Of a DNA stretch of 64,000 bases, positions 9,590 to 60,909 are shown one piece after another. The position numbers and the translations under genes were made by a program. The first letter of the stretch is position 1; each line of letters opens with the position of its first letter. This DNA is from an uncultured virus (IMG/VR IMGVR_UViG_3300027834_000001) (taxonomy: Duplodnaviria; Heunggongvirae; Uroviricota; Caudoviricetes): the IMG/VR virus record IMGVR_UViG_3300027834_000001; one strand, written 5' to 3'. The notes below the pieces were generated by a model, which worked only from the letters and a program-made list of their open reading frames with translations, searched no databases and was not told the DNA's origin.

Positions 9590-12500
9590 CTACTGCAACA
9601 CATAACGTCGACATCAGATTTCGCGAAACTGGCGCAAGGGTTATCAAGCGCAAGATCGATGAAATCGGCGTAGCAGCCAACTCGGCTACTCGCGGCATCT
9701 TCTTGATGCAACGTGCTCTCTTCGTCTTGGGCGGAGCAGGGATCCTTCGTGCGCTCACACGTCAGCTTGATACACTTACCAACTATGAGAACAGACTTCG
9801 CCTGACTGCAACCAGTGCAGCAAATCTAGAGGAAGTTCAGTCTCGGTTGTTCCAAGTTGCACGAGATAGCCGCACAGGATTTGAAGCTGTCGCTGACATC
9901 TATAGCCGGACTGCGCTCTCGGTCCGAGAACTTGGCATCTCGCAGGCTGAAACACTTCGGTTCACTGAAAGTCTCAGCAAAGCGACCATCATCTCTGGTG
10001 CGTCATCTCGAGAGGCTCACGCCGCCTTGATCCAGCTTGGACAAGGTATGGCATCCAACACGCTCAGAGGCGACGAACTTCGGTCCGTTCTGGAACAACT
10101 GCCATTCGTTGCAGATGTCATCGCCGAAAGTCTTGGAGTTACTCGTGGTGAATTGCGTGAACTTGGTGCTGACGGTAAGATCTCTGCGGAAACCATTCTC
10201 GAAGCATTCCGTAATGCTGAAGAGGAGATCGATCGCCTGTTCGCAAACACTGTTCCAACCATCAGCCAAGCGTTGTCCGTTGCGAATACCAACTGGCTTG
10301 AGTTCCTTGACAATATTGACGATGCGACAAATGCTTCTGGAAATCTAGCCAAGGCGATTATCGTCCTGTCAGAAAACCTTGGCCTGATCCTCGGTGTTCT
10401 CGGCTCGCTGGCACTGGCTCTGACAGCAACGTTCGCAGGTAAAGCAATCTCAGCTATTGGTAATTATGTTCTCGGTCTGCGTGGTGCAGCACTGGCTTCC
10501 ACCCGCCTGTTGGAAATCGAAAACATCAGAGCAGCGACATCCGTGCGGAACAATGGTATCGCAGTCGCGGCGAATGCCCAAAGGCAGGTAGAGTTGACAC
10601 AGCGTCTGTCTCTCTTGGGTATTCAGAAGGCTCAACTGCAACAGACTGTACTCGATACTCAGTTCACTGTGGCGAACGGTCGAGCACGAAATATCTCAAC
10701 TGGTCAGTTCGTTGGACTAGCTACTGCGAAAGCCAACCTCTCACGAGTGACACAACAGCTTTCAATTGTTGAAAACGCTGAACTTGTGACTGCTGGGAGG
10801 CTTGCTGGAGCAAGGGCAACGCAAACTGCTGCCACTACTACCGCCACCGCCGCTAACAGCCGCCTAGCCGCAGCACAGGCCGCACAGGGTGCAACAGCGG
10901 CACGGCTTACCGCGCTATTTCCAACGCTGGCTGGCGCAATCGGTCGAGTTGGTGTAGCATTGGCTGGATTGGCAGCATTTATCGGTCCGCTTGGTCTCAT
11001 CGCCATAGCGGTCGGAGCAGTCGTGACAGCATTCGCTCTGTGGGGCAATGAGATCAAAGTAACTTCCGACGGAGTAGTTGGTCTTAAAGACTTCGTAGTC
11101 GCAGCATTCCAGTTGATGGGTGAAGCGATCGCACCATTCGCCACTTTCCTCAGAGAGCAAGTTGGGGGAGCAGTCACAGCTGTCCAAGGTTTCTTTGAAG
11201 GATTTGGAACAACAGTAGCGAAGGTCTTTGCAGATACTGTGGCTCTTGCTGTGGATGCGTTTACTTTCTGGCCACGAGTTGCTCTAGGTACAATCGCTGG
11301 TGTGGTTGCAGCTTTCAAATCTCTACCAGAGGGAGCCGCTACATCAGCGACTGCTCTAGCCAATGTATTGATTGCTGGATTTGAGGCATTCGCTAACGGG
11401 GCGATCAATGCAATCAATAAGGTTATCGGCGCTCTGAATGCTCTACTCTCTTTCGTTGGAGCGGACAAAGCAGCTGAGCTCTTTGGGTTCTCAGGTCAAC
11501 TCGGTAAACTTGATCCAGTAACTCTAGGTAGATTTGAAAGTGAATATTCTGGAGCAGGTAACGCCGCAGCAGAAGCATTCCAAACTGCTTTCGGTGAGAG
11601 TTTTGAAGCTAATAGCTTCGAGGGACTGGCTAATTCAGCAGCGAATGCTCTAAGACCAATTGGTGAAGCCATCACTGGTCAGGCTCGTCGCAACATTGAT
11701 CAAGCTGCCGAGGATGCTCTTCATGCTCAGAACGTCATCAATAATGTTCCACCAGCGGCACCGACCGATCCTGACAGTGGTTCTGGCAGTGGTGGAGGTA
11801 GTAGCGCACAACGAGCAGACTTTGCCAGCGTCCTCTCAGGCATGAACCAAGAGATTGAGTTGCTTCGTCTCTCGAATAAAGAACGTCGTATCCAGGAGGG
11901 TATCCTTGAAATTGAGAAAGAACTCAAACGTGGTCTTACCCAAGCCGAACAGGAGTTGGCGGCTGCGACTATTGAGTCGGTACATGCTGCGGAAACACAA
12001 GCACAGGTTCTGCAGGATATCATTGGTCCCCGAGAGGAGATCGCGGAACAGCAGGCTGCACTGAACGCTCTGTTTGAGCAAGGTCGCATTGGACTGAATG
12101 ACTATACCACGGCAATCCGTGAGATGCAGGTCGCGGCGGATGAAGCGGCTGGCACACTGTTCGGCGGGTTCCGAGCAGCCATCAACAGCGCAATCATGAG
12201 CGCATCTGAACTAGGGTCCGCCCTTGGTGACATCGTTGTTGGCGCGGCTGATAGCGCAGCAGACGCTATCGTAGAGTTCGCAAAGACTGGTAAACTCAAC
12301 GTCCGTGAGTTCTTCTTCGACTTGTTTGCACAGATCACCAAGCTGATCGCCAAGCAACTCATCCTCAAGGCTCTCGGTGGTCTGTTCGGCGGGTTCGCTG
12401 GTGGCGGTAGCATTGGCCCAAGCGGCGGTCTCGGCTTCGCTGGTGGTGGATCAATAAACGCAAGTGGTCCAGGATCAACTGACAGTCAGATTGTTCAGTT

Positions 12501-12741
12501 CGCTAAACGTCCTGACGAGCGTGTGGATATTCTCACTCCTGGGCAACAAAAAGCCCAAAGGGACAATATGAATGGCGGCGGAGGCGGGACTACAGTCGTT
12601 CAGTCTCCTCCAGTAAACGTGGCAGCAGTGCTCTCGCCTAGCGATATCACTGGTGCATTTGATAGCTCAGAAGGTGAAACAGTCGTGATAAATATCCTGT
12701 CACGGAATGCTTCAACCGTTCGTCAACTGGTAGGTGGATAA
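9586..12741 (+). CDS. Tape measure protein
   Basis: 1051 aa, Ala-rich and helical. QLGQGMASNTLRGDELRSVLEQ tape-measure N-domain and FAGGG C-terminal motifs. Confidence 0.92.
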   Translation: MTTATHNVDIRFRETGARVIKRKIDEIGVAANSATRGIFLMQRALFVLGGAGILRALTRQLDTLTNYENRLRLTATSAANLEEVQSRLFQVARDSRTGFEAVADIYSRTALSVRELGISQAETLRFTESLSKATIISGASSREAHAALIQLGQGMASNTLRGDELRSVLEQLPFVADVIAESLGVTRGELRELGADGKISAETILEAFRNAEEEIDRLFANTVPTISQALSVANTNWLEFLDNIDDATNASGNLAKAIIVLSENLGLILGVLGSLALALTATFAGKAISAIGNYVLGLRGAALASTRLLEIENIRAATSVRNNGIAVAANAQRQVELTQRLSLLGIQKAQLQQTVLDTQFTVANGRARNISTGQFVGLATAKANLSRVTQQLSIVENAELVTAGRLAGARATQTAATTTATAANSRLAAAQAAQGATAARLTALFPTLAGAIGRVGVALAGLAAFIGPLGLIAIAVGAVVTAFALWGNEIKVTSDGVVGLKDFVVAAFQLMGEAIAPFATFLREQVGGAVTAVQGFFEGFGTTVAKVFADTVALAVDAFTFWPRVALGTIAGVVAAFKSLPEGAATSATALANVLIAGFEAFANGAINAINKVIGALNALLSFVGADKAAELFGFSGQLGKLDPVTLGRFESEYSGAGNAAAEAFQTAFGESFEANSFEGLANSAANALRPIGEAITGQARRNIDQAAEDALHAQNVINNVPPAAPTDPDSGSGSGGGSSAQRADFASVLSGMNQEIELLRLSNKERRIQEGILEIEKELKRGLTQAEQELAAATIESVHAAETQAQVLQDIIGPREEIAEQQAALNALFEQGRIGLNDYTTAIREMQVAADEAAGTLFGGFRAAINSAIMSASELGSALGDIVVGAADSAADAIVEFAKTGKLNVREFFFDLFAQITKLIAKQLILKALGGLFGGFAGGGSIGPSGGLGFAGGGSINASGPGSTDSQIVQFAKRPDERVDILTPGQQKAQRDNMNGGGGGTTVVQSPPVNVAAVLSPSDITGAFDSSEGETVVINILSRNASTVRQLVGG

Positions 12742-20802: not shown

Positions 20803-21482
20803 TGCTTCCTGGAATTGTAGCAGCAACAGAAGGGGGTTCATCCGGCGGCACCGGACCAGAACTTCCTATTGGAGTTCCAGTTCCTCTTGTATGGATAACT
20901 CCTAGAGAAGTTGAATTGGATGGTAGCGGTAATGTAACTAAGTTCTTAAATCAGGGATCAACTGGATCAACTAATGACGCAACTCCAAGCACAGCCAATC
21001 TTTGCACAATAGTTCAGCCAGCTTCTTGGGGAGGACAAGATGTAATCAATATTCCAGATACAGGTGGAGGTGGTTACGATATGTCAAATATAGTCGAAGC
21101 CAGGACCATAGTGGCTGTGGCAACTTATCAAGATGGTGTTCAAGCGACTTTCACTAACTATGATGGATTAGTTGGTGGAGGAACAGGTTCTTCCATTGAA
21201 CTTTCTGGAAAAAATGGTACGAGTGAATTGTTCTTCACTAGTTTCCCAACATATAAGAACGGTATCTTGGTTCCAACTAGATCTGTTCTTCCTATGGATA
21301 AGACTGGAATCGCAATTACTAACTCTGCTACCGACTCTGCAGCAGCAGCATTGTTTCATGACGATTTTAGCACTTCTAGAAATTGGGTGGGTCTCTGTGG
21401 AGATGTTATTATATTTCAGTCTGTTCTAACTGATACTCAAATTCTTGATGTTCATAATTCAATTATGGATTTTTACGCATGA
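20802..21482 (+). CDS. Putative receptor-binding protein, LamG/lectin-like
   Basis: NWVGLCGDVIIFQSVLTD C-terminus resembles LamG-like folds. DNA is AT-rich. Confidence 0.55.
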   Translation: MLPGIVAATEGGSSGGTGPELPIGVPVPLVWITPREVELDGSGNVTKFLNQGSTGSTNDATPSTANLCTIVQPASWGGQDVINIPDTGGGGYDMSNIVEARTIVAVATYQDGVQATFTNYDGLVGGGTGSSIELSGKNGTSELFFTSFPTYKNGILVPTRSVLPMDKTGIAITNSATDSAAAALFHDDFSTSRNWVGLCGDVIIFQSVLTDTQILDVHNSIMDFYA

Positions 21483-21760
21483 AAAAGGATACTCGTTTTC
21501 AAAATCGCCGACGCATGGCTTGGATCTCATTCTTCTTTATGTTGATGGTAGGTGGATGGATGTTAGTTCTTGGAGTTACCCAAGAAGGAGCAGCAGATAG
21601 GGTCGAGAAACTGAGTTTCCTATTGGGTTCCATATTCGGTATGTGTACCACAATCATCGTTAGTTATTTTACTTCCTCAACTATGACTCAAATGAATGAC
21701 ACTAAATTTGTTACCGATGATCTACCGACACCAGAGGAGCCGCAGGATGCACCACACTAG
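21479..21760 (+). CDS. Putative holin (2 TM)
   Basis: NRRRMAW followed by two hydrophobic helices, at the start of the lysis cassette. Confidence 0.6.
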   Translation: MKKDTRFQNRRRMAWISFFFMLMVGGWMLVLGVTQEGAADRVEKLSFLLGSIFGMCTTIIVSYFTSSTMTQMNDTKFVTDDLPTPEEPQDAPH

Positions 21761-21880
21761 CCGCCGCGCCCCTATACCCCGCAACCATACCACAAGGGCC
21801 GCAGGCGGACGCCCTGTGGTGCCGCTGGCTGCACTATGCCCCGCCGCCTTGCCACCAGCGCGTCCGTAGAGGTCAACACT

Positions 21881-23277: not shown

Positions 23278-23286
23278 AGCCTATTA

Positions 23287-23560
23287 GTGAAGTCAAGTGA
23301 AGTCATCTCGGTTGTCTTACTGCGTTGTTATTAAAGCAAAGATTATCGCCTGACTTCACTTGCACCCCTGACACCCCTAGTTCGCTGGTTGCTAAGGCTG
23401 GCGCGTTTAGCTGGCTAGGGTTTTTGGTAAAGTAAGTAAAGTAAGTAAAGTCAGTGATAAATAAAGTAAATAAAAACAAAGGGTTGAGATGCCCTCACTT
23501 TGGGCCAATGGACGCTTCACGAATGAAGTCAGGGGAGTCAGCGAGGTTGTCACCCCTAGC
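23287..23560. repeat. Repeat-rich intergenic region, candidate replication origin
   Basis: GTGAAGTCA direct repeats at 23287 and 23297. 12-bp inverted repeat 23294-23305/23351-23362. Tandem GTAAAGTAA units, an A-rich tract, and CACCCCTAG twice. Confidence 0.6.
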
Positions 23561-23597
23561 TTGCTTGGGTTAAGGTGCAATTAGAAAAGGAGCAACA

Positions 23598-25067
23598 ATG
23601 GATATTCAAGATTACCCGCACGTGATTGAGCCATTTGATCACCAGCGCAGCCACTTAGCCGAACATGTCGAAGAAAGATCTTGGGGTCTGCTATGGGAGC
23701 AAGGTACTGCCAAGACCAAACCTATCGTGGACACCGCCGCCTACCTGTACGACGAAGGCAAGATTGACGCCCTAGTCGTTGTCGCTCCTCCTGGAGTTGA
23801 GCGCAACTGGAACACAGACGAAATCCCAAAACACATGCCGCCAGACTACAGTTTCGATTGTATGGTCTCGGTGTTCCTCACTGCTAAAAAGAACACCAAG
23901 GCACACAAACGGAACATGAACGCCTTGCTCAATTGGGATGGCCTTGCTATACTGCTAATCAGTTACAATGCCTTTATGACTAAAGAGGGAAAGGAATTCA
24001 TTTGGAAGTTCCTCAAGAAGCGGCGGTGTCTATATGTACTCGACGAAGCCCATAACATTAAGACTCCCAATGCCAAGCGGACCAAGTCAATTGTCGCGTC
24101 TGGCAAATATGCTGAATACCGTCGTATCCTTACCGGAACCCCCGTGGCTATCGGACCATTCGACCTCTATAGTCAAGTTCGTTTCCTCGACGAATACTTC
24201 TGGAAGAACAAAGGTATCCATGGAAGCGTAGAGTTTCGTCAGTTCTTTGGGCGCTGGTTCACACGTGCGGACTGCCAGAAACTTCACGGCTATGATCCTG
24301 GATACGATAAGCTACTTGAATATCAGAACCTCGATATCCTCAGGGAATGGCTTTCCGAAATCACCGATCGTGTACTCAAGGACGATGTCCTCGATCTCCC
24401 ACCAAAGCTATACTCCAAGCGTTACTTTGATATGTCACGTGAAATGAAGGCAGCTTACCAAGAGTTGTCCGAAGAACTGATGCTGGAAATCGGTGACGAG
24501 ATTATTACCGCTGAACTACCTATCGTGAAGCTTCTCAGATTGCAGCAAATCGCATGTAACTACATTCCTATCGGCGAGGAACAGCCTGTGCATATGTTCT
24601 CTGGGTCAAACCCACGCCTCAAACTCATGGAGACCATCCGCGATGAAACCTACAGTCCCACCATTGTCTGGGCACGATTTACTCATGATGTCGATCAACT
24701 CATGGACCTGTTGGGCAAAGATGCTGTACGGTATGACGGATCCGTTGATGATGATGAAGCTGAGAGAAACAAACTTGCGTTTCAACGAGGCGATGCTAAG
24801 TGGTTTGTCGGGACAGCCCAAAAGGGCGGACCAGGACTGACGCTGACCCAAGCGAAGACCATGATCTACTACTCCAACAGTTACCGTCTGATCGATAGAC
24901 TGCAATCTGAAGACCGTTGTCACCGCGCTGGTATGGACGAGCATCCCGTCAATTATATTGACCTTGTGTGCAATGATACAGTTGACGAAGACATTGTCGA
25001 CAACCTCCGAAACAAACGTAACGTGGCCGTGGAAATCCAAGGTGACGAATGGAAGGAATGGATATGA
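23598..25067 (+). CDS. SNF2-family helicase
   Basis: EQGTAKT, LDEAH, LTGTP and QSEDRCHR motifs. Confidence 0.92.
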   Translation: MDIQDYPHVIEPFDHQRSHLAEHVEERSWGLLWEQGTAKTKPIVDTAAYLYDEGKIDALVVVAPPGVERNWNTDEIPKHMPPDYSFDCMVSVFLTAKKNTKAHKRNMNALLNWDGLAILLISYNAFMTKEGKEFIWKFLKKRRCLYVLDEAHNIKTPNAKRTKSIVASGKYAEYRRILTGTPVAIGPFDLYSQVRFLDEYFWKNKGIHGSVEFRQFFGRWFTRADCQKLHGYDPGYDKLLEYQNLDILREWLSEITDRVLKDDVLDLPPKLYSKRYFDMSREMKAAYQELSEELMLEIGDEIITAELPIVKLLRLQQIACNYIPIGEEQPVHMFSGSNPRLKLMETIRDETYSPTIVWARFTHDVDQLMDLLGKDAVRYDGSVDDDEAERNKLAFQRGDAKWFVGTAQKGGPGLTLTQAKTMIYYSNSYRLIDRLQSEDRCHRAGMDEHPVNYIDLVCNDTVDEDIVDNLRNKRNVAVEIQGDEWKEWI

Positions 25068-30336: not shown

Positions 30337-31053
30337 ATGGATATCAACTTCAACGACACCGCATATACTGAGGCCTCTCTGGCCGACATGTCCGTTGACG
30401 ATCTTCTGACCCTGCGCAATGAAGTGGCTGTCAGCCTCGGCGTCGCGGAAGTGAAGGGTTTCAAAGATCAGGCGGCTGGCGCTACTCAGACCTGGAAGGC
30501 ACTGCAACGCCACTCGAAGGCGGCTGCGAGCGCTGAAAAGAAAGCTGCAAAAGCGAAGGCTCCACCCAAGGAGCGTGGACTTGCCAAGTCGGCGGAAGCC
30601 AAGACGGTCAAGCGTCCGAACAAGAAAATGTTTTCTACCATTACCAAAACTGGCGAACACGACGGCACTCAGGGACGGACCCATCGCTGGCCGAACTACA
30701 AAGACGGCATGACCATCGTTGACGTGATCGAGACCGAAGGCACCGAGCCGTGGGACGTCTACAATTGGGCTGGTCAGGGTATCATGTCTGTGACCGAGCC
30801 GACCGACGAAGAGTTCGCAACTCGCAAGGCGGCATGGTACAAGAAGCACGGCCTGACCGATCCGGAAGCGGCGAAAGCTGCCAAGGCAAAGGAACGCGCC
30901 GAAGCCAAGGAAGCTCGCGAGAAGGCCGCTGCTGAGAAGAAAGCGGAACGCGAAGCTGCCAAGGAAGCCAAGGCCAAAGAACGGGCCGAAGCGAAAGCTG
31001 TCAAAGAAAAGGCCGCTGCTGACAAAGCTGCTGCGAAGGCCGCTGCTGAGTAA
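30337..31053 (+). CDS. Putative DNA-binding protein with Lys/Ala/Glu-rich tail
   Basis: YKDGMTI central domain and about 60 aa of AKAKERAEAK-type repeats. Coupled to the modification cluster. Confidence 0.7.
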   Translation: MDINFNDTAYTEASLADMSVDDLLTLRNEVAVSLGVAEVKGFKDQAAGATQTWKALQRHSKAAASAEKKAAKAKAPPKERGLAKSAEAKTVKRPNKKMFSTITKTGEHDGTQGRTHRWPNYKDGMTIVDVIETEGTEPWDVYNWAGQGIMSVTEPTDEEFATRKAAWYKKHGLTDPEAAKAAKAKERAEAKEAREKAAAEKKAEREAAKEAKAKERAEAKAVKEKAAADKAAAKAAAE

Positions 31054-31964
31054 TGGGCCTTGAAAAAGTCAATGCGTTCTTCAGCTTTGTTGAGGAACGC
31101 GAACAGATCCGTCTCCGAAAGGAGGCGGATTTGCCGTATCCCTGGACTGAAGACTCGATCCTCAGGGACTACAAATTCACCAACGTTCATCGGCATCATG
31201 ATAGGACAAGCCGTGAACTACGGGAGCAATTTTACGATCAACATCGTGGATCCTCCTGCAAAACTATTCTCATGAATGCCGCTACGTTCCGATATTTCGG
31301 GACGCATGAATTTGCCTCTGCTTTGGGCTGGACTGATTTCAAAGATATGGATGATGACCATTGGGAATGGGTGAAAGAACTTGCGGAAGATAGACTGGCA
31401 GACAAAGAACGTGTCTTCACGGGCGCATACGTTATCACGAACCAAGGCATCTCCGCCCCTAAGCAAGAAGTCGTGGTTGATTATTTTCTCAAGGCTCTTC
31501 AGAAGGCAGCCCCGGAAGTAGTCGGCATTGCAATCGATACTCAAAGCTGGGAGAAAGTTGCTGATCGTATGCGGTTGATCAATGGTTTCGGAGGTTCTGG
31601 CTTCATGACCAAAGAGATCTTGCTTGACACCACCTACACTAAATTCTGGGACAATATGGTTGATCATCCAAAGGACGGACAGTTTAGCTTCCCTGTTGAT
31701 TGGGATAGCTGGACACCCATTGGTCCTGGAGCGAGACGTGGTGCAGCACGGGTCAGCGGTGACGACGAAGCCAAGCCACTTAAGGAAGAAGCTGCTGGTG
31801 ATGTGATCGACGATCTGCTGTTCCAGCAAGACTTGTTTCTACCTGACGAATGGGATACTCTTGCGCCTCACGATATCCAGTTTCAGCTTTGTGAATTCGA
31901 CAAGTATGAGCGTGTTCGCTTGGGCCAAGGACGACCACGGTCTCGCTACAAAGCACCAAAGTAA
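31053..31964 (+). CDS. 5-hmdU DNA kinase family (aGPT-Pplase1-like)
   Basis: ERE.IR.RK, PWTEDSIL..YKFTNV.R..DR, GPGARRG and LCEFDKYER. Confidence 0.85.
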   Translation: MGLEKVNAFFSFVEEREQIRLRKEADLPYPWTEDSILRDYKFTNVHRHHDRTSRELREQFYDQHRGSSCKTILMNAATFRYFGTHEFASALGWTDFKDMDDDHWEWVKELAEDRLADKERVFTGAYVITNQGISAPKQEVVVDYFLKALQKAAPEVVGIAIDTQSWEKVADRMRLINGFGGSGFMTKEILLDTTYTKFWDNMVDHPKDGQFSFPVDWDSWTPIGPGARRGAARVSGDDEAKPLKEEAAGDVIDDLLFQQDLFLPDEWDTLAPHDIQFQLCEFDKYERVRLGQGRPRSRYKAPK

Positions 31965-32048
31965 TCTGGAAGAGGGCGACAAATAGCACTTGTCTTTTGC
32001 GCCCTCCGCCGCTATGCTGGCTAAACATAACCTTTCGGAGATAGCCAA

Positions 32049-33320
32049 ATGAAGATACTGGTTGCGCTTCACAAGTGCATGGACCTCGGCGGTATTATTG
32101 ATCATACCGAGCAACTCATAGGCGGTCTCCAAGACCTCGGCCATGATGTTCACCTCAAAGAACTCGTATGGGCGTTTCAAGCCCCTGCACAACGTAAGAC
32201 AGCAGACTGGAGCATCGGCCCAAGTGGCATTCCACATCACCAAGGAAAGGGCTGGAACTTTGATCGGAAGGATCGCATTCCTTATCGTGGTGGCGCTGCT
32301 CTATCAGGCGCAAAGCAACGGCTCGAGGCTTACGACCTCATCATTTGGACAATGCCAGTTCCAAGCAAGAACAAAGACAATCTCGGTAACGATGACTGGC
32401 CAGAGTTGTACGACCTTCCAAAGCGCGTTAAGCAGGTTGCATTCATCCATGACGGGAATGCAGTAAAGGGAGCAGGTCATCTGCTGGCTATCCAGGACCG
32501 CCTCTCTGGGCTGGCCTGTGTTCACCCGTGCGCCCTCAATGGTGCCACCTTTGCAGACGTGCCTCGCACCATGATTGTCAATCCTCAGCTGAACCCCGTG
32601 CGTCCTTACGCCAAGTGGGAACAGAAGTCTCCAGGTTTCGTAAACATGCAGACCTTCAAGGCGTGGAAACATGCTCACGAACTGGTGGAAGCAGTTCACT
32701 ATATGCAGCCGCGTGGAGCCGACGAGTTGCGCGAGATCGCTGGCTTGGGCATTGAATACCGCTACATGACCAGCGAGGACAAGTGCAAGGATGCCTACTT
32801 CCACGCCAATGGTGAGAAGTTCTGGGACGCTGCACTGAACAACGGCATGACCCACCACGATTATTGGGATAAAGACCAAGTTGACAACTATCTCAACGAA
32901 GCCCGTGTCTTGGTCGACCCGTCATGGTCCAACAATTATTCAAAAGTCGGCGGTCACTTTAACCGTGTGGCCGTGGATGCAATGATGCGCGGCTGTTGTG
33001 TCTTGGCTCGACAAAAAGGGATGGGTTCGGAGTTGTTCCAGTCTGGTGAACACTACATGGCTATCCCCGAGGATGCTGATGCTCAGGAATATGCTGACCT
33101 CGTTCAGTATGCTGGCGGCATCGCACCGAAAACGGCACAACGCATGATTGATGCGAACCGTGAACTCTTACCCATGTTTGATCGGAAGACAGTGGCGCAA
33201 CGTGTCATTGATCTGGCACATGGTGAGATCGAAGTGGAGGAAGTCCAAGGGACAGCCAGCCATGCAATGGAAACCAAGGTCGAGAATATGTTGTTCGACC
33301 ATTTCGGAGTACTACTATAA
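32049..33320 (+). CDS. GT-B glycosyltransferase, putative DNA-modifying
   Basis: MKILV...GGI...L..L..LGHDV, FIHD and LVDPS...FNRVAVDAMMRGC. Confidence 0.75.
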   Translation: MKILVALHKCMDLGGIIDHTEQLIGGLQDLGHDVHLKELVWAFQAPAQRKTADWSIGPSGIPHHQGKGWNFDRKDRIPYRGGAALSGAKQRLEAYDLIIWTMPVPSKNKDNLGNDDWPELYDLPKRVKQVAFIHDGNAVKGAGHLLAIQDRLSGLACVHPCALNGATFADVPRTMIVNPQLNPVRPYAKWEQKSPGFVNMQTFKAWKHAHELVEAVHYMQPRGADELREIAGLGIEYRYMTSEDKCKDAYFHANGEKFWDAALNNGMTHHDYWDKDQVDNYLNEARVLVDPSWSNNYSKVGGHFNRVAVDAMMRGCCVLARQKGMGSELFQSGEHYMAIPEDADAQEYADLVQYAGGIAPKTAQRMIDANRELLPMFDRKTVAQRVIDLAHGEIEVEEVQGTASHAMETKVENMLFDHFGVLL

Positions 33321-34330
33321 TGGATATTGTTTCAGTTCGCAACGTGGAGGAAGCCCTCATCTTGGGCACGAAGGTTGTCAACTCTGTTGGTGTGCGGCGA
33401 GACAGCCGCAACGGTCCTGTGAAGGTCATGCCAATGCCAGTGACCACGATCTACAGTCACCCAAAGGAACGCGTCATGTTCCTGCCGGATCGCGACTGCA
33501 ACCCATACTTCCACTTCATGGAATGCCTCTGGATGCTGTCCGGTCGCCGTGACGTTGCTTGGATTTCACAGTTTAGCAGCAACATCGCCAACTACTCCGA
33601 TGATGGGATCAACTTCCATGGTGCCTACGGTTATCGCTGGCGGAACCACTTTACTGAGCCGGACGACAAGAACAACGTTCTCGATCAACTGGCCACCATC
33701 GCTGAACTTCTCAAGAAGAACCCCGATGACCGCCGCACTGTTCTCCAAATGTGGGACGCAACTGTTGACCTCGGTTTGGATGGCAAGGACTTCCCTTGCA
33801 ACCTGATCATCACCTTCCGGATCAATCCGCAGGGCCACCTTGATATGACTGTGTTCAATCGCAGTAACGATATGGTCTGGGGAGCCTACGGGGCGAACGC
33901 TGTTCACATGTCCTTCCTGCAAGAAGTCATGGCTTCATGGGTCGGTGTGCCTGTCGGCAAATACTGGCAGATCAGCACCAACTTCCACGCCTATCTGAAC
34001 ACACTGGCCAAGGTGGAGTCAGTGATGGACCTCTCTGCTGGGTTCACACCATACGAGCTCGATGAAGTTGCACCGTTTCCAATCGTCAGTTCTGGTATTG
34101 ATCAGTGGCATTCTGACTTGGCTATGTTCATGGACGAAGGTGCCAACGCGATGGGATACACTGACCAATTCTTCAAGAAGGTGGCCGTGCCTATGCTGCA
34201 ATCGTGGCAAGCGTGGAAAGATCGAGAAGCCCCTGACTTCATGGACAGCGCCGCTTACTACGCTGACCGCATCGCAGCTTCCGACTGGCGCAAAGCCTGT
34301 GTGGAATGGCTGGAGCGTCGGGACGTATGA
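33320..34330 (+). CDS. Thymidylate synthase-fold enzyme, probable dUMP hydroxymethylase
   Basis: SRNG, NPYFHFME.LW.L.GR.D, GAYGYRW, DFPCN, NRSND..WG.YGAN and NFHAY. Confidence 0.85.
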   Translation: MDIVSVRNVEEALILGTKVVNSVGVRRDSRNGPVKVMPMPVTTIYSHPKERVMFLPDRDCNPYFHFMECLWMLSGRRDVAWISQFSSNIANYSDDGINFHGAYGYRWRNHFTEPDDKNNVLDQLATIAELLKKNPDDRRTVLQMWDATVDLGLDGKDFPCNLIITFRINPQGHLDMTVFNRSNDMVWGAYGANAVHMSFLQEVMASWVGVPVGKYWQISTNFHAYLNTLAKVESVMDLSAGFTPYELDEVAPFPIVSSGIDQWHSDLAMFMDEGANAMGYTDQFFKKVAVPMLQSWQAWKDREAPDFMDSAAYYADRIAASDWRKACVEWLERRDV

Positions 34331-34899
34331 GCAGCAATGGACCCATCTACGTTTTTAACTCAGATGTAGAGCGCATCAAATACTCTCGTGAAGCAGCATG
34401 TGTTCAGAGGACACATGCGGCTCCTGGGATCGGCGACCACTCAGTCGGGAAGCATAGCTTCAACATGGTCACAATGCTTCTGATCATGTGGCCAGAAGCG
34501 CCACGTGAACTGATCGTCGCCTGCATCAAACATGATCTCCCAGAGCGGACAACGGGTGACATGCCTCATCCAGCGAAGCGGGCTGGTATCCAGAACGATG
34601 AAGCCCAAGCGGAAGCAGAGTTCGACATCAACGAGGGCTTGTTCGGTATCCACGAAGAACACTATCTTCCGGACGAACTGAAACTCTGGCTCTCTGGGCT
34701 GGACATGCTCGAATTCTACTGCTATTGCCGTGATCAGTGGATGATGGGCAACCGTTCAATTGAGACCAAGCTTCAACAAGTTGAGGCAATCATGCTGAAG
34801 AGCCCGCACTTGTTTCCCATTGAGATCGTGAATATGTATTATGAGATCAAGGACCACGATTGGGCTCAGATGCCAGATATCGGGGGACGTGTGGAATGA
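34327..34899 (+). CDS. HD-domain 5'-deoxynucleotidase (YfbR-like)
   Basis: R.H...HSVGKHS, HDLPE..TGDMP.P.K and DMLE. Confidence 0.85.
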   Translation: MSSNGPIYVFNSDVERIKYSREAACVQRTHAAPGIGDHSVGKHSFNMVTMLLIMWPEAPRELIVACIKHDLPERTTGDMPHPAKRAGIQNDEAQAEAEFDINEGLFGIHEEHYLPDELKLWLSGLDMLEFYCYCRDQWMMGNRSIETKLQQVEAIMLKSPHLFPIEIVNMYYEIKDHDWAQMPDIGGRVE

Positions 34900-35669
34900 G
34901 TCACGACCGTGACGTCAAGACCTGTGATTGCGGAAAGCAATTGTGGGACGGAGCAACCTGTAACTGCAAGGAACTGAAAATGAGAGCGACACAAGTCGGT
35001 GGTGACCACTATCAAGCGAAGTATCAGCATTGGGATTGGGCAGGCGATGTTCGCCTCGGCTACTACGAGAGCGCCGCTTCCAAGTATGCCTTCCGCTGGT
35101 ATAAGAAGAATGGCATCGAAGACTTGGACAAGGCGCGGTCCTACCTGCTCAAAGCCAAGGAGATGTTCTTGGAAGGTCGTTGGGACAACCGTTGTCTGCA
35201 CGTTGACAGCTGGCCGTTGGCTCGTGACAAGGCAGAAGACATGTTCGCAACCTTCTGTGATGAAGCCGTTGTGCCTATGATCGAGGCCGACCTCTGCCTT
35301 GCAATCGCTCAATGGCGTACCGACGCAGACCTCAGCATTATCATTGGCCATTTGGGAGCGCATATAGAAGCCGCACAGGGCGTGCTTGATGCTGGCGGCA
35401 CCCTTGGCCCATTGGTGGCCTTAAACGCGCCACAGGCCGCAAAAACAGGGGCCGCTGGACGTGCTGGTGGCACTACCACCCAAGGCGCGGCATCCAGCGC
35501 GTCCATAGGCGTCGCAATGAAGGCATTTGGCCCGTGTCCCTGCGGTTGCGGACAGCCACGCGCCAAGGGAATGAACTATGCGACCCTTGATTGTGCGAAG
35601 AATGTCCGCGCAGCAGAACTCAGTAAAGGGACTGACCATCCTGCTCCCTTTGGATATAAGGATGACTAA
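34896..35669 (+). CDS. DUF3310 (putative nucleotide kinase) protein with low-complexity/Cys tail
   Basis: QVGGDHY, KY..RW.KKNG.EDL.KA..YL, and CPCGCG near the C-terminus. Confidence 0.75.
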   Translation: MSHDRDVKTCDCGKQLWDGATCNCKELKMRATQVGGDHYQAKYQHWDWAGDVRLGYYESAASKYAFRWYKKNGIEDLDKARSYLLKAKEMFLEGRWDNRCLHVDSWPLARDKAEDMFATFCDEAVVPMIEADLCLAIAQWRTDADLSIIIGHLGAHIEAAQGVLDAGGTLGPLVALNAPQAAKTGAAGRAGGTTTQGAASSASIGVAMKAFGPCPCGCGQPRAKGMNYATLDCAKNVRAAELSKGTDHPAPFGYKDD

Positions 35670-35839
35670 TGAGATTTCTTAGAAGACTCTTTAGAAGAAT
35701 TACTGGTACTTCCAGAGGCAATCATTGGGCTGATGGTCTACCTAAATGTAAACATAGACCTGGACCTTCTGGTCAAAGAAGGTGTCAGAATATCGCTACA
35801 CATAGTAGATATTGCTCTATTCATCGTTGGATACACTAA
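35669..35839 (+). CDS. Small basic C3H zinc-finger-like protein (56 aa)
   Basis: KCKHRPGPSGQRRCQNIATHSRYCSIH. TAATG overlaps at both ends. Confidence 0.55.
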   Translation: MRFLRRLFRRITGTSRGNHWADGLPKCKHRPGPSGQRRCQNIATHSRYCSIHRWIH

Positions 35840-36240
35840 TGATCATTAAGGGATGGGCCTCAGTATGGGGTGAATGCGATAGCCATAGTGATGTCACAGT
35901 GAAAGGTAGTTTCAAGAAAGATCTCAAGAAGTTTGACTACACAAGACCGATGCTTCTGCACCATGACAAGGCACAAATCATCGGTCGATGGGACGTGATC
36001 AAAGAGAAAAAGTATGGTCTCTGGTGTGAAGGAACAGTCCTCGATGATAACGCACAGTTTTGGATCAAAGAACACTGCCTTTCTGGTCTATCAATTGGTT
36101 ATGCTGGCCGAAGAGAATTCAGGAAGCGTGGTCTGTGCATGTTACAACAGATTGAATTAGAAGAGATCTCCGTAACTTCAATTCCCGCTAATAGAGCGGC
36201 AAGAATTATGGAGATCATTGCCGATGGCAAAGCAGACTAA
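35839..36240 (+). CDS. HK97-family prohead protease (S78), displaced
   Basis: GWASVW...D, PMLLHHD..IG.W, GLSIGY and LEEISVTSIPAN..ARI. Confidence 0.85.
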   Translation: MIIKGWASVWGECDSHSDVTVKGSFKKDLKKFDYTRPMLLHHDKAQIIGRWDVIKEKKYGLWCEGTVLDDNAQFWIKEHCLSGLSIGYAGRREFRKRGLCMLQQIELEEISVTSIPANRAARIMEIIADGKAD

Positions 36241-43426: not shown

Positions 43427-43606
43427 TTTGGAGCCCTACGGACGCGCTGGAGCAGCGTTAGCGCCCTGCCCTACCTTGCGCACCACCACAGGCCGCGCCC
43501 TATGCCCTGCCCTGCCATAATTAGCCTCCGGCGGTGTAGGACATAAAGGTTTGGTCAGCTTGCGCGGCTTATGCTACAATATAGTCTAAGAAATGGGATA
43601 TAAAAC

Positions 43607-52315: not shown

Positions 52316-52655
52316 AACTATGGTCTCGGAGCCGCGTTCGTTATAACCGGCCTAAGACTATAAGAGTTCTCCCATCAGGTGAGGTTCAAAGAAAGTATTT
52401 GCGGGGAGGTAAGGAGCATGTCTGGAAGACAGTTGATTGCTTTACCCTCTCGCCAACGAAACAGCCGCGTTCATGCTCACGGGACTATAGAGCGCGGCTA
52501 TTGCGGACCGCTTATTAGCGGTCTGGGACGTCGCTTGGCCTTGGCTGGTGTGGTAGCCTACGGCAAGGTCAGGTGACTGTCTGGTGGGGCGCGTTTGGGC
52601 CACCTTACGCGTCCCGCCCCAAGGTTTAACCGCCGCTACCACAAAGGAACTAAAG

Positions 52656-52904
52656 ATGGCACTAGACGCAGCAAAATTGATTGAGATCACCCAAAGAGGC
52701 GATGCTATTTCCAAGCGGAGCAAGATCGCTCTAATGGAATTTGACGTGGCAGTTGAGGCGAACGATACCGCCAAGCAGGAAGAGATCCGCGTTAAGATGC
52801 ACCAGTTGATTGATGATCAACTGGATCTGCAATTGGAAGTGAAGCACATTAAAGATGCTCACACTAAAGAGATCTTGGAAAGGATGAAGAGAGACTTCAA
52901 GTAA
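52656..52904 (+). CDS. Helical hypothetical protein
   Basis: AAGGA RBS before MALDAAK. Confidence 0.6.
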   Translation: MALDAAKLIEITQRGDAISKRSKIALMEFDVAVEANDTAKQEEIRVKMHQLIDDQLDLQLEVKHIKDAHTKEILERMKRDFK

Positions 52905-56263: not shown

Positions 56264-56812
56264 ATGGTAGACACAACCTGCAAACAAAGTCCTACGGGAC
56301 GTCATGCTCCACTCGTATTGGGAGGAGAATGTCAGCACTGCCACGCTGTTCTTGATAGTAGAGGAGCGGCACCGAATTACATGTTCGATAAGGTGAAGAT
56401 GGTGCATCAACCCACTGGTCTCAGCGTTGATTTAATATCTGGCAGCGATGCAAGCCTGCGTATTGCCCACCTTACCCTAATGCAACTTGTCAAGGAGGCC
56501 TCAGAAGGCTCTGCGGACGCGCTGGATGGCGCTGGCTTGGCAGGGGTGCAGCGGCTACGTCCGCAGAACTCCTATGAACGTGCCAGAAAGGCAGTTGTTG
56601 CCCTATATGAAGAACAATCTGTCGGCGGTATCCTGCATATCGTTACAGATGATCTAAACACAGAAGATCATCATCTCAAATACTGTGGGCAATATTACGA
56701 TGAACCACACCCTTCGTGGGGAAGATCAATGACTGACGTAGAGAAAGAATGTTACAACGCACTTCTGGCTCTAAGTGAAGAAGAACGAGAATCAGCAATT
56801 CTAGGAGTATGA
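56264..56812 (+). CDS. Hypothetical protein
   Basis: GGILHIVTDD.N.ED motif. Start is uncertain. Confidence 0.55.
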   Translation: MVDTTCKQSPTGRHAPLVLGGECQHCHAVLDSRGAAPNYMFDKVKMVHQPTGLSVDLISGSDASLRIAHLTLMQLVKEASEGSADALDGAGLAGVQRLRPQNSYERARKAVVALYEEQSVGGILHIVTDDLNTEDHHLKYCGQYYDEPHPSWGRSMTDVEKECYNALLALSEEERESAILGV

Positions 56813-56813
56813 C

Positions 56814-57083: not shown

Positions 57084-57084
57084 T

Positions 57085-57327
57085 ATGTGTGAATTCTGTG
57101 ATGTAAACAAACAAGTCGAGAAACTGCACAGTGAACTGAGCTTCCGGTTCGCTCAGTTTCAAGTGGAACTGGATGCAGAACGCGAGGACGAGGCCGCTAA
57201 ATGCCAAGACCGAGCCGCCACAATCCAGAAGGAGATCTTCACACTTCTTCGTCGACGAGCATCCCTCGATATAATGCACGAGGAAGAAGGCGGTCTGAAA
57301 AACATGTTCTCGAAGATGGTGAACTAA
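57085..57327 (+). CDS. Hypothetical protein
   Basis: MCEFC N-terminus and coiled coil. Confidence 0.55.
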   Translation: MCEFCDVNKQVEKLHSELSFRFAQFQVELDAEREDEAAKCQDRAATIQKEIFTLLRRRASLDIMHEEEGGLKNMFSKMVN

Positions 57328-57554
57328 TGAAACTCGGTCATCGTGCAGCTTTCTACGTCTGGTTTAACGAAGCTAAACGCTTCCTCACATATGACATATT
57401 CAAGGATGAGTTCGGCTCCTCATCCAGCCCTCATGCCGCTACCCTATTCACTTCCAGAGCAACGGCAGAAAGGATCGTGGATAGGATCCGGCCATCCCAC
57501 TCCTATACGATCATACAGACAAGAACTCATGAACCGAACGTCATTGTAGGTTAG
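57327..57554 (+). CDS. Hypothetical protein
   Basis: TAATG coupling, A.LF.SR..AE motif. Confidence 0.5.
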   Translation: MKLGHRAAFYVWFNEAKRFLTYDIFKDEFGSSSSPHAATLFTSRATAERIVDRIRPSHSYTIIQTRTHEPNVIVG

Positions 57555-57567
57555 AGTGGATAAGTCG

Positions 57568-58203: not shown

Positions 58204-58524
58204 GGTGAGTACCTCTTAGTATATAAAGTGACATGATATATTATGCGTAAGACGTTGTAAAGGCTTAGTTTTCTCTTTGAGCACAATACATTGGTACTTC
58301 TTTTTTTGGCTTACGCAGGTTGCAGGGTAAATGCCCAAGGGAGGTCAGGTAGCTGGCTGGAAGGTAGTAGAGTAGTGAAGTATACCTCTATTTAGTATTT
58401 AATAAAAATAGAATTAGTAATAGAAACAACGGTTTAGCTGGCTGAGGGTTGACTCTACTGAAATACTACAGACAGATCTGGAAATAATGAGGCTTGCTTT
58501 CTTTGGGCTTGACGACTACTGTTA

Positions 58525-59202
58525 ATGGAGGGATCTTCTTATTCTTCCTTCGCACGCACACTGATGAGAGAGATGACAATGACTGACGAAACAGATTATG
58601 CTCAGCAATACGACGAGAACTTCTCGCAGCGAGAACGACCCCGCTCCCTTATCAGTCGCGGATCGAAAGTCCAAAAAGTGGATATATTTGATGACGTCAC
58701 TGGAGAATGGCGGACAGAGATAAGAATGTCTCGTATAAAGTTCGACGACAAGGCCAAGGAAGTGTTCTTGTTGGAGTTTGCGAAATGGGGACGGATGGGT
58801 GAGGCAGCAGCCGCAGCAGGAGTATCTCCGCAGACTGTCAGACATCACATGGAAGAAGACGAAGAGTTCGCAGAAGCCATGCTCATGCAAGAGCAGGAGT
58901 ATCAAGAGAAGCTTATCGGTCACCATCAAAACCTGTTGTTCAATGGGACGACAAAGAAGAGTTATGACCGCAACGGCAACCTCGTCTCCGAAGAAACAAT
59001 CTATCCTATCCGCCTCATCGAGTTGGAACTGAAGAAGCACGACGAGGGATACCGAGATAAACAAGAGGTGAAAGTCAATCACACTGGCGGCGTAATGGTT
59101 GCACCAGCCGAGACCAAGGATGTGGACGATTGGGAGAAGCGTTTCGGAGCGGCGAAGGATGTCACTCCTGGGCCTCTCCCGATTGAAGACAAGGAAGACT
59201 GA
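58525..59202 (+). CDS. terS: Terminase small subunit
   Basis: HTH: FL......G....AA.AAGVS.QTV..H...DEEF.EA, then YP.RL.EL.LK.H...YRDK.EV. Start may be 58573. Confidence 0.75.
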   Translation: MEGSSYSSFARTLMREMTMTDETDYAQQYDENFSQRERPRSLISRGSKVQKVDIFDDVTGEWRTEIRMSRIKFDDKAKEVFLLEFAKWGRMGEAAAAAGVSPQTVRHHMEEDEEFAEAMLMQEQEYQEKLIGHHQNLLFNGTTKKSYDRNGNLVSEETIYPIRLIELELKKHDEGYRDKQEVKVNHTGGVMVAPAETKDVDDWEKRFGAAKDVTPGPLPIEDKED

Positions 59203-59490
59203 AAAATCGCCGACAAGGATTATCAGACGAGGTCTCCAGGAGCGACTCCATCTGCAGAATTCGCCGACACGATCTGTCGGATTGAAGATCTGTAGGATTC
59301 TCTGTCCTCATCTACATCGTCTTCCTCTTCTTCCGTATGATCTGTAGATCTCAGAGATCGTGGAAATAACCCGAGATGGAGATATCCTGGAAATAAATGT
59401 CCTTTGCAGATAAATAGAGTTTGTCACACTCCGAGCCACATGCTATTCTGAGCGTACCTTAAACAAACACCCACGCGAAAGGCTACCACC

Positions 59491-59586
59491 ATGACACGCG
59501 CACAATTGAACGAACTCGTCGCTGATTATCTCGCACGTGGAGGCAAGATTACTGTTTGCCCGACCACCGACAGGAGGATCAGCTGA
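59491..59586 (+). CDS. Small protein with YLARGGKI motif (31 aa)
   Basis: MTRAQLNELVADYLARGGKITVCPTTDRRIS after the promoter at 59421 and AGGCTACC. Confidence 0.6.
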   Translation: MTRAQLNELVADYLARGGKITVCPTTDRRIS

Positions 59587-59831
59587 TGGAATTCATTGAT
59601 GGGTGTTTCAACTTCTGCACGTATGATGCAGACCTTAATGAAGTTATCTGGTGGGACTTGCAGAAGCACCCGACAGTGAAACCTGAATACCAAGTTCTTC
59701 GGCAGTTCGGCACAACGACAGTTGAGGACTACGACGGAAACGTTCTTAAATTGAAAGGCGAAGAGCCATACAAAGCGGTGATCCTGTTCGCCACGATGCT
59801 CGGCCTCAAGGAAGCGGCGAGAGAGGAGTAA
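59586..59831 (+). CDS. Hypothetical protein
   Basis: AGGAGG RBS, TGATG coupling. Confidence 0.6.
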   Translation: MEFIDGCFNFCTYDADLNEVIWWDLQKHPTVKPEYQVLRQFGTTTVEDYDGNVLKLKGEEPYKAVILFATMLGLKEAAREE

Positions 59832-59979
59832 TCCTCTCAGCCTACTGGTGATCTTCGCTTCCTCTTGGGCTCCCACCTCGTTTTTCGCCGATACCGATAA
59901 TCCCCGACGGATTTTCGCCGACATTGTTAATCCGAAGGACGAAGAAGAAGACGATCTCCATCTCCAGGAAAGAAGAGGA

Positions 59980-60165
59980 TCACTCCTCTCCCTCCTTCCA
60001 TCCGTGGTCCACTTCGCAACTCAGGCTTCCCGCGCTATCAGGCTGGTAGAAATCCATCAGCCGTTCTATGCAATCCTCGCCAGTCAAGGCATGGTCCAAA
60101 ACATAAACCTCTGGCACGGTGGTCTCTGCGCTCCAAAGGGTCAGTAGCAATACAAATTTCACCAT
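59980..60165 (-). CDS. Small exported hypothetical protein
   Basis: MVKFVLLLTLW signal-like segment, GGAGG RBS, two Cys. Confidence 0.55.
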   Translation of the reverse strand: MVKFVLLLTLWSAETTVPEVYVLDHALTGEDCIERLMDFYQPDSAGSLSCEVDHGWKEGEE

Positions 60166-60166
60166 A

Positions 60167-60322
60167 TCAAAACGCCTCCACATAGCAAAGCCCAAAGGCA
60201 TCAACGTAATGCTGGCAAGCCGCAACGGTTCCGGTGTAAATCACCTTGTCCGTATAGCGGTCCTTTACATAGGCGCGGTCGGGTGCAGTAGCAGGGGTCT
60301 TTTTTGCAAATCGCTTAAACAT
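60167..60322 (-). CDS. Small hypothetical protein
   Basis: AAGGA RBS on the minus strand before MFKRFAKK. Confidence 0.55.
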   Translation of the reverse strand: MFKRFAKKTPATAPDRAYVKDRYTDKVIYTGTVAACQHYVDAFGLCYVEAF

Positions 60323-60519
60323 TGTGTGTTCCTTTGTTTTGGTTGTCCTATTGTTATGCACTAGAAATAGGGCAGAATTAAGGCGGATTGTACTTTGTTT
60401 GGAAACTAACTGTTTCCGACCTTAGTGCATTTTTTACTTTACATATGCCGCGCTCGGCATTAGGTTAAGGGCAGGCCAAGCAATAACGCACTGGCCACAA
60501 CCAAAGTAAGGAACTAACA

Positions 60520-60909
60520 ATGGCTACCGCAACAAACAAGAAAGCCCCTACCGCAACCAAGCGCAAGGCACCAGCCGCCACCGCCGCCACAGGCAGCGGC
60601 ACTGTGGCCACTACCAAGCAGGCCACAGGCAGCAAGGCAGCACAAGCAGCAGCCCCACAAGCCCCCCTGTTTACCGTTGGCACCCTGCCCCCCGTGCGCC
60701 CCGGAACACACCGTGCTTACGCGCAAGCCGTGGCTGTGGCACTGGCCAAGGAGCACAAGGCTGGCTTCACTCTGGCTCAGTTCAAGGCGGCACTGGTAGC
60801 AGGTGCAGCAGCGAGCAGCGTGGCACCGCCGCGCGGTGGATGGGCCGCGCATAACATGCCTACATGGATGGCCAATACGAACCAGTCCTGGCTCGTGGCC
60901 ACCAAGTAA
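60520..60909 (+). CDS. Basic Ala/Thr/Lys-rich protein, putative DNA-binding
   Basis: TAAGGA RBS. Only one acidic residue in 129 aa. Confidence 0.65.
   Translation: MATATNKKAPTATKRKAPAATAATGSGTVATTKQATGSKAAQAAAPQAPLFTVGTLPPVRPGTHRAYAQAVAVALAKEHKAGFTLAQFKAALVAGAAASSVAPPRGGWAAHNMPTWMANTNQSWLVATK

Follow-up and report, generated by a model that had tools for sequence, protein, structure and literature searches.

Why does a phage genome that is dense in GA and TC dinucleotides contain a handful of short stretches from which both are missing? This question arose for IMG/VR record IMGVR_UViG_3300027834_000001, a 64-kb window (i.e. the whole 64,000-nucleotide stretch of DNA analysed here) that comprises nearly the whole genome of an uncultured siphophage. 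The initial annotation had reported several GC-rich islands with none or one of these dinucleotides and had suggested that a thymidine modification in the TC context may be excluded from them to allow proteins to load there. As GA on one strand is TC on the other, the two were treated as a single strand-symmetric class (hereafter GA/TC). The window carries portal, capsid, tape measure, tail, lysis, replication and terminase genes, almost all of them on the plus strand. Its capsid protein shares 64% identity with the capsid proteins of Pseudomonas phages in the NP1/PaMx25 group, and its replication and nucleotide-metabolism genes, including their order, resemble those of Pseudomonas phage M6, indicating an M6-like siphophage. 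No near-identical DNA was found among the isolated phages searched, and the only public runs holding DNA of the window were two marine metagenomes, stored as assembled contigs.

GA/TC was the commonest strand-symmetric dinucleotide class in the window, accounting for 9381 of 63999 dinucleotides (14.66%; observed/expected ratio 1.16–1.18). This over-representation, together with a mean synonymous z-score of +0.39, led to rejection of a genome-wide mutational bias against TC. Maximal GA/TC-free runs of 164, 112, 77, 70, 69, 62, 57 and 55 nt were nevertheless observed. In 300 simulations of a first-order Markov null the longest run averaged 50.7 nt and never exceeded 71 nt, and runs of at least 55 nt numbered 0.27 on average (largest number 3) as compared to the eight observed. 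The CA/TG class occurs at the same frequency as GA/TC, yet its longest free run was 52 nt. Just seven regions had four or fewer GA/TC per 100-nt window (mean 14.5, standard deviation 3.2), and long GA-free and long TC-free runs fell at the same loci, demonstrating strand symmetry. Within individual islands 8–14.5 GA/TC were expected from mononucleotide shuffles and 7.5–11 from synonymous codon resampling as compared to 0–1 observed. A recount reproduced the reported numbers exactly for the six main islands (none in 10810–10920, 23384–23450, 43452–43526 and 60542–60703; one each in 21748–21862 and 35390–35492), and the placement of two of them in the tape measure gene (9586–12741) and the DUF3310 gene (34860–35669) was correct. 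A high GC content was seen for most islands but not for 23383–23451, and of the two weaker islands (4 GA/TC in 52533–52645 and 7 in 56449–56560) the first is a weak tract and the second is only mildly depleted. These data confirm that the GC-rich tracts are real and lie beyond chance. The tracts and related stretches are as follows, none being assigned to a strand.

10809..10920, tape measure tract: a 112-nt GA/TC-free run inside the tape measure gene, encoding an Ala/Thr/Gln-rich peptide (7.7 GA/TC expected by synonymous resampling, 0 observed).
21747..21863, lysis-upstream tract: runs of 62 and 55 nt split by one GA in the word GGCGGACGCC; non-coding, between orf93 (21479–21760) and the Rz-like lysis gene.
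23383..23451, AT-rich repeat run: 69 nt, 45% GC, with repeats of (GTAA)n or (GTAAAGTAA)n type and with TGAAGTCA-type repeats on its flanks; in the large intergenic region that separates the lysis genes from the SNF2 helicase gene.
35389..35492, DUF3310 linker tract: a 70-nt run and a further 34 nt separated by one GA in CTGGACG; encodes an Ala/Gly/Thr/Pro/Gln-rich linker of the DUF3310 protein.
43451..43527, ligase-upstream tract: a 77-nt C-rich non-coding run within a 12-bp inverted repeat (ACGCGCTGGAG / CTCCGGCGGTGT), directly upstream of a sigma-70-like promoter (43552–43580) and the ligase gene.
52532..52647, weak tract: 4 GA/TC in 116 nt, with two stable hairpins (RNA folding z = −3.4).
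56449..56560, mildly depleted stretch: 7 GA/TC in 112 nt inside orf204, with a hairpin (CTGCGGACG...CGTCCGCAG) on an 11-mer that is shared with other tracts.
60387..60886, tract between the terminase genes terS and terL: 16 GA/TC in 500 nt, with runs of 57, 164 and 47 nt; covers the 5' leader and most of the gene for a 129-aa basic protein (60520–60909).

The AT-rich run differs in kind from the others (the equivalent repeat of the close relative G001 contains GA) and was excluded from the GC-rich tracts.

The absence of GA/TC could be a by-product of composition: the coding tracts would simply encode flexible Ala/Thr/Gly/Pro/Gln/Lys linkers, the non-coding tracts would be GC-rich hairpins or arrays of repeats, and the dinucleotide itself would be under no selection. 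Amino-acid content alone indeed lowered the expectation from ~15 to 7–9 GA/TC per 100 nt, and within-gene permutation of synonymous codons in the window gave z-scores of only −3.4 and −3.6 for the coding tracts (distribution range −3.56 to +3.63), so that the synonymous part of the signal is borderline in the window by itself. Such runs also occur in low-complexity protein sequence elsewhere. In the 7-deazaguanine phage NP1, the virion genes of which are related, runs of 63–144 nt lie in Gln/Ala/Pro repeats, with a synonymous expectation of just 2.3–3.3 for the two runs read in the annotated frame, and there is no run in the tape measure gene; similarly, a run in locus L035 lies in a tandem Lys/Pro/Val/Ala repeat. 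The decisive evidence came from relatives. Eight near-complete related viral contigs, all uncultured, were compared (G001–G008; further loci carry L numbers), with genes taken from crude longest-open reading frame (ORF) calls; as these lineages are related and not fully independent, combined P values overstate independence. The three coding tracts were defined in the window, and GA/TC were then counted at the homologous residues of the relatives. Synonymous-level depletion was found in 14 of 14 tests (z from −2.8 to −4.1), including the three segments of the window.

For eight segments from G002–G005, at positions defined in the window, GA/TC-bearing codons were used at only 4 of 96 eligible codons as compared to 30.1 expected (Phe, Gly, Ile, Leu, Arg, Ser and Val), and GA/TC was created at 2 of 307 codon junctions as compared to 39.2 expected. 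The tracts do encode Ser, Val, Leu, Phe and Arg, but with codons lacking GA/TC. Codon order exhibited the same avoidance, as permuting codons within a tract whilst retaining local codon usage raised the GA/TC count in all eight segments (Fisher P = 3e-4). The effect was class-specific: the mean z-score was −3.5 for GA/TC as compared to −1.6 for AG/CT, with a compensating rise in CC/GG and GC, and in 53 runs from six genomes the observed/expected ratios of AG/CT, CA/TG and TA were 1.13, 1.45 and 1.56, respectively, so that AG/CT is not depleted. Non-coding tracts likewise fell far below the mononucleotide-shuffle expectation, and G007, with a GC content of only 43%, has runs of up to 290 nt. 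The absence of GA/TC is thus greater than predicted from base composition, amino-acid sequence and local codon usage, is specific for this dinucleotide class and recurs at the same sites despite divergence. The depletion survived the comparison of GA/TC windows with shuffles that control for base composition and amino-acid content, the relatives deciding the outcome, and the earlier claim that the constraint acts on the DNA is supported by the synonymous tests, by avoidance within codons and at junctions, and by the same absence in non-coding tracts. The codon and junction deficits at homologous positions indicate that selection acts on the nucleic acid and not only on the peptide. Selection against GA/TC is therefore highly probable, and explanation by composition alone, which is already strained, is quite unlikely.

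Conservation was examined tract by tract. The DUF3310 linker tract was found in all five relatives tested, with 1, 1, 2, 0 and 0 GA/TC in G001–G005 as compared to 8.3, 6.7, 9.6, 8.7 and 5.2 expected by synonymous resampling (P ≤ 0.0024 in each; Fisher P = 2.6e-11 across lineages that are not fully independent), and the peptides have strongly diverged. In the tape measure gene the homologous segments of G001, G002 and G003 contained 0, 0 and 1 GA/TC, respectively, as compared to 8.0–8.4 expected; the tape measure protein of M6 aligns across this tract without a gap. For the non-coding tracts the sequence diverges between relatives and the absence of GA/TC is kept. The lysis-upstream tract contains one GA/TC as compared to 11.8 expected by mononucleotide shuffle, and the 250 nt preceding the Rz-like homologues of G001, G002 and G003 contain runs of 62, 107 and 65 nt (P ≤ 0.0018 each). 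Upstream of the ligase gene, runs of 74–78 nt were located at distances of 150–970 nt in L001–L004, L011, L012, L014 and L062, in sequences that are partly unalignable. A fixed frame of 250 nt before the ligase gene, which was badly chosen, captured the run only in the window and G006; in G001, G002, G004 and G005 it lies 330–970 nt away, behind an extra small ORF. Equivalents of the low region at 52532–52647 were present in a close relative (L085, 4372–4484; L003, 18936–19048). The spacing of the tracts was more even than expected in the window, G001 and G005 (low coefficient of variation of the gaps; P ~0.01) but not in G002–G004, and this result depends on the threshold; even spacing is a weak lead only.

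The largest tract lies between terS (58525–59202) and terL (from 63113 onward), and this location was the same in eight of eight genomes, the tract being coding in six, where it covers a small basic protein gene, and non-coding in two. The gene for the 129-aa basic protein, for which no match was obtained in NCBIfam or the protein atlas, is conserved in G001, G002, G003 and G006. It contains a single GA/TC in both G002 and G003 as compared to ~11.5 expected. In G006 a 622-nt run, placed by GC profile and ORF coordinates, lies at this gene and no Asp or Glu was seen in the translation; in G007 a matching tract was read but not aligned. G004 and G005 lack the gene and instead have non-coding repeat arrays in the same place, those of G005 being (CAGGG)n. 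From its position, this tract is reasonably guessed to be the packaging site.

Three further observations concern this interval and its surroundings. Just upstream of the largest tract, 315 nt (60050–60364) contain TC but no GA; they apparently overlap an ORF on the minus strand, such that the sense strand of that ORF would lack TC only. Both ends of the G004 contig (1–560 and 60950–61630) fall in the terS–terL interval, where several tandem repeat arrays occur, some GA/TC-free and some not; these ends may be physical genome ends or an assembly break. Lastly, a GA/TC-free stretch of 133–137 nt lies in the gene for a 298-aa protein (G004, 52755–52891; G005, 5216–5348) that has no homologue among the labelled proteins of the window, and encodes a fairly ordinary peptide containing Val, Leu, His, Tyr, Ser and Arg.

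Runs of at least 55 nt were then counted across phages. The window contains 8, and G001–G008 contain 9, 6, 11, 9, 10, 8, 10 and 2, respectively, as compared to a geometric expectation of 0.2–2.3 for these relatives. M6 and ViI have none and PhiW-14 has one of 59 nt, i.e. one run in 374 kb for these three phages where the geometric model predicts ~15. More distant contigs that share the PF18723 gene (see below) at 52–65% identity have runs of 133–146 nt at the same offset from that gene and a high genome-wide GA/TC ratio (rho 1.28–1.58), whilst another group of PF18723 contigs (rho 0.73–1.06) has no runs. GA/TC-free tracts are a trait of one phage clade. A full-text literature search combining the relevant terms retrieved no paper on them, with subscription journals lying outside its coverage. 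Seven of the PF18723 contigs (L116, L124, L126, L128, L135, L143 and L145) exhibit extreme genome-wide over-representation of GA/TC (rho 1.38–1.58), which may be a host signature or may be related to the tracts.

Which process could require DNA without TC? A single rule, namely no TC on either strand of the duplex, fits the data best because the absence is strand-symmetric, dinucleotide-specific and conserved in position. Purifying selection against 5'-TC-3' on both strands would then keep a process that reads TC on double-stranded DNA out of segments of 60–600 bp. The candidate for this process, on a speculative view, is the clade's own post-replicative and context-dependent modification of 5-hydroxymethyluracil or thymine. 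Tracts lacking the target would stay free of bulky adducts so that proteins can bind; terminase is one candidate binder, at the terS–terL tract, and other factors may bind at other tracts. This interpretation, in which the GC-rich tracts would act in cis and exclude a TC-directed DNA transaction or form gaps in a modification, is the leading one. The phage's own base modification is the only DNA process capable of reading TC for which there are candidate genes in the window. It is also consistent with the largest tract always lying at a plausible packaging site, and several tracts are bounded by lineage-specific inverted-repeat words. We favour it tentatively and with low confidence. The candidate genes form a cassette on the plus strand.

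31053..34899, plus strand: candidate cassette, composed of the following four genes.
31053–31964, plus strand: PF18723 helical-domain protein (E = 1.1e-32), 28% identical to M6 gp55 (E = 1e-29); present in all five of G001–G005.
32049–33320, plus strand: GT-B-like glycosyltransferase (PF00534, E = 1.7e-7).
33320–34330, plus strand: thymidylate synthase homologue (PF00303, E = 1e-24; phrog_5131, E = 1e-122); all NCBIfam thymidylate synthase models score below their cut-offs.
34306–34899, plus strand: HD-domain protein.

The product of 33320–34330 has the thymidylate synthase homology predicted of a dUMP hydroxymethylase, a similarity that does not separate hydroxymethylase from methylase. The earlier assertion that the phage encodes thymidine hypermodification needs a correction: PF18723 is a helical domain named after the 5-hydroxymethyldeoxyuridine (5-hmdU) DNA kinase, and the 'kinase' match of the window is only to the gp55-like helical domain of M6 and not to the proven kinase gp54 (PF18748). 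Two ORFs of the window (30337–31053 and 58525–59202) showed no similarity to M6 gp54. The Pfam search of the window covered 45 ORFs, not all, and absence of PF18748 from the window itself is thus not proven. The glycosyltransferase-like protein had no tblastn match among isolates.

The cassette resembles those for hypermodification in M6, ViI, PhiW-14 and SH-Ab 15599 in having the thymidylate synthase homologue, the HD-domain protein and the PF18723 protein. According to reports on such phages, 5-hmdU is converted in a sequence-specific manner (PMC5889632), and the thymines are chosen by the next base, in TG or TC contexts (PMC6449724, PMC7653180, PMC13458397). In a more specific form of the modification interpretation, this marine M6-like clade may modify T only before C, probably by a 5-hydroxymethyluracil and glycosyltransferase-type cassette, with programmed TC-free gaps at fixed positions where terminase and other DNA-binding proteins would meet bare DNA, the largest gap being the packaging site. 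This version is possible, with a slightly smaller chance than the general one.

Several observations weigh against the modification interpretation. The P-loop 5-hmdU DNA kinase PF18748 was detected neither in any of the five complete relatives G001–G005 nor in G007 by a search that matched M6, ViI and G008, and the amino acid:DNA transferase PF18724 was found in none of the five complete relatives (positive control, the M6 gp51 protein only); in the cassette a GT-B-like gene is present instead. This glycosyltransferase-like gene is present in the window and G001–G004 but absent from G005, which keeps its tracts. The window has only the gp55-like protein, and gp55 is reported to have been dispensable when the M6 reaction was reconstituted in lysates (PMC8989533). 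The composition of the cassette is thus atypical. PMC13458397 places TG far above TC as a modification context, and TG is enriched in the tracts, where G follows 54% of T as compared to 28% genome-wide. The interpretation consequently needs an undescribed TC-only specificity, as the best documented context is enriched where it should be missing. In addition, no tract free of TG or TC was found in M6, PhiW-14 or ViI, all characterized as thymidine-hypermodified, and no excess of CA/TG-free runs was detected in these three phages, indicating that modification-free windows are not a general need. Approximately half of the drop in the coding tracts is due to amino-acid composition, and the tape measure tract is not kept in G004 (17 GA/TC) or G005 (16 GA/TC). 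A separate observation concerns PhiW-14 (157 kb), the putrescinyl-thymine of which is reported to occur in the CA/TG context: this class is strongly over-represented in its genome (rho 1.34) and very evenly distributed, with no TG-free run exceeding 36 nt, a length below the chance prediction.

TC could also be selected against if a nuclease of the host or the phage, a deaminase or some other defence attacked DNA at TC wherever replication, packaging or hairpin extrusion leaves it exposed or single-stranded. An analogy is provided by animal viruses, in which depletion of TC is ascribed to APOBEC3. The strand symmetry, the conserved positions and the inverted repeats at several tracts are all compatible with such an attack. 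The rest of the genome is, however, rich in TC (observed/expected ratio 1.17, and up to 1.58 in relatives), the tracts are GC-rich and not AT-rich as C-to-T deamination would leave them, no candidate enzyme was identified in the window, and the tape measure tract is less self-complementary than its shuffles. Attack on TC is accordingly improbable as the cause.

Alternatively, lineage-specific factors (e.g. terminase, a replication initiator or a transcription regulator) may recognize the tracts as arrays of binding sites or as structured DNA or RNA, with preferred words, such as CAGGGC, CCACAGG, GCCGC and CCCTR, that happen to lack GA/TC. An 11-mer, GGACGYGCTGG, has five copies in the window, which form inverted repeats; four lie at tract edges, and one is located in the weak tract near 56.5 kb. 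Those at the edges are listed here.

21855..21865, minus strand: copy at the edge of the lysis-upstream tract.
35457..35504, inverted pair (35457–35467, plus strand; 35494–35504, minus strand): hairpin at the 3' edge of the DUF3310 linker tract.
43440..43450, plus strand: copy at the 5' edge of the ligase-upstream tract.

The lone GA inside the tracts 21747–21863 and 35389–35492 sits in the GGACG word in both cases. Three of four copies in G001 and three of four in G002 mark the same tracts as in the window, none was found in G003–G005, and different words stand at the tract edges of G004 and G005. These edge words argue for specific binding sites, as do a ~20-fold enrichment of CACAGGS in the tracts of the window, G001, G002 and G005, the (CAGGG)n arrays between terS and terL of G005, and the conserved 12-bp closing helix that bounds the ligase-upstream tract. 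No word was universal, however: CACAGGCCGC, CCCTATRCCC and CACAGGS are each enriched in some tracts, CACAGGS occurs 0 times in the tracts of G003, and the 11-mer is absent from the coding tracts of the tape measure and basic protein genes, so that a shared word was rejected as the cause. Between lineages the tract sequences differ and only the absence of GA/TC is common to them, there is no covariation for structure and folding energies are unremarkable. We consider arrays of binding sites a doubtful explanation. Mobile palindromic repeats were also rejected as the tracts and 11-mer copies are syntenic in the window, G001 and G002, and a G-quadruplex or i-motif was rejected as no canonical motif (four runs of at least three G with short loops) occurred in the window, L003, L079, L085 or L011. 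Canonical G-quadruplex motifs are present in tracts of L012, L014 and L062.

Lastly, the rule could act on RNA: plus-strand transcripts may have to lack GA and UC, e.g. because an endoribonuclease would otherwise cut them or because a factor such as Rho requires unstructured RNA. All tracts lie in the plus-strand gene array, the plus strand is C-rich and G-poor in most of them, and the tape measure tract is unusually unstructured, folding as RNA worse than 200 of 200 shuffles. Such a rule would, however, need two separate exclusions (GA and UC) as compared to one at the level of DNA, and the non-coding repeat arrays between terS and terL of G004 and G005 look like DNA sites. A structured RNA was rejected on the basis of no Rfam match, no tRNA and folding z-scores from −1.7 to +2.6 apart from 52520–52650; RNAalifold found conserved helices with almost no compensatory change. 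We know of no ribonuclease with paired GA and UC specificity. A rule at the RNA level is very improbable, being the least likely of the explanations weighed here.

Comparison with known systems distinguishes the tracts from each of them. Vertebrate CpG islands are short, dinucleotide-defined, locally unmodified landing sites for proteins in which the target dinucleotide is retained because it is unmethylated. The tracts are likewise short dinucleotide-defined islands, but the candidate target is removed, and the link to modification is only inferred. Phages avoid restriction sites and animal viruses exhibit APOBEC3-type depletion of TC, both being examples of genome-wide selection on short words in DNA. 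The tracts share with these systems a strand-symmetric selection that is visible at synonymous sites but differ in that GA/TC is over-represented genome-wide (observed/expected ratio 1.17; relatives 1.28–1.58) and is absent only from fixed tracts of 60–600 nt. Rickettsia palindromic elements and repeats resembling miniature inverted-repeat transposable elements are short, bounded by inverted repeats and inserted in-frame in genes, adding a peptide stretch; absence of GA/TC is not among their features, and the tracts remain syntenic across relatives at ~50% protein identity, with no sign of mobility found. Bacterial single-stranded DNA-binding protein has a disordered linker and a C-terminal tip. 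The DUF3310 protein has a similar layout: its N-terminal domain is joined to a variable Ala/Gly/Thr/Pro/Gln linker, and several relatives have a conserved tip composed of HPFGY and acidic residues; a linker of this type explains neither the codon and junction deficits nor the non-coding tracts.

Whatever the mechanism, the signal is strong, clade-wide and easily computed. If the tracts mark exclusion of a TC-reading process, the raw sequence alone would reveal the context of an uncharacterized phage DNA modification and would also map cis-acting sites (packaging, perhaps replication or regulation) of uncultured phages. A rule at the level of DNA would then shape proteins, producing linkers and one whole gene without Asp and Glu and without TCN, xTC and xGA codons, and the TC-free gaps would represent a phage counterpart of CpG islands, made by removal of the target.

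Additional features were noted elsewhere in the window. The large intergenic region 23280–23600, in which TGAAGTCA-type direct repeats lie on both sides of the AT-rich (GTAAAGTAA)n core, is conserved in G001–G003 and G005 and may be an origin or a control region. The E. coli-type Chi octamer GCTGGTGG has nine copies (e.g. at 3143, 12397, 21852 and 35463) as compared to 2.3 expected, a number reached in 1 of 100 shuffles; seven of the nine are on the plus strand and two overlap the 11-mer at tract edges. A 238-aa protein encoded immediately before the PF18723 gene has, at its C-terminus, tandem repeats of 74-nt units (30865–31052) that are rich in Lys, Glu and Ala. A 142-aa ORF (35812–36240) with a match to prohead protease (S78) lies in the replication module, where it immediately precedes the DNA polymerase gene, and is far from the head genes. 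Between 47172 and 59456, six sigma-70-like promoters (TGGTCA/TTGTCA, a spacer of 17 nt and a TATACT-like element) each follow a conserved GATAAATAGA box, and the ligase promoter at 43552–43580 looks related to this family.

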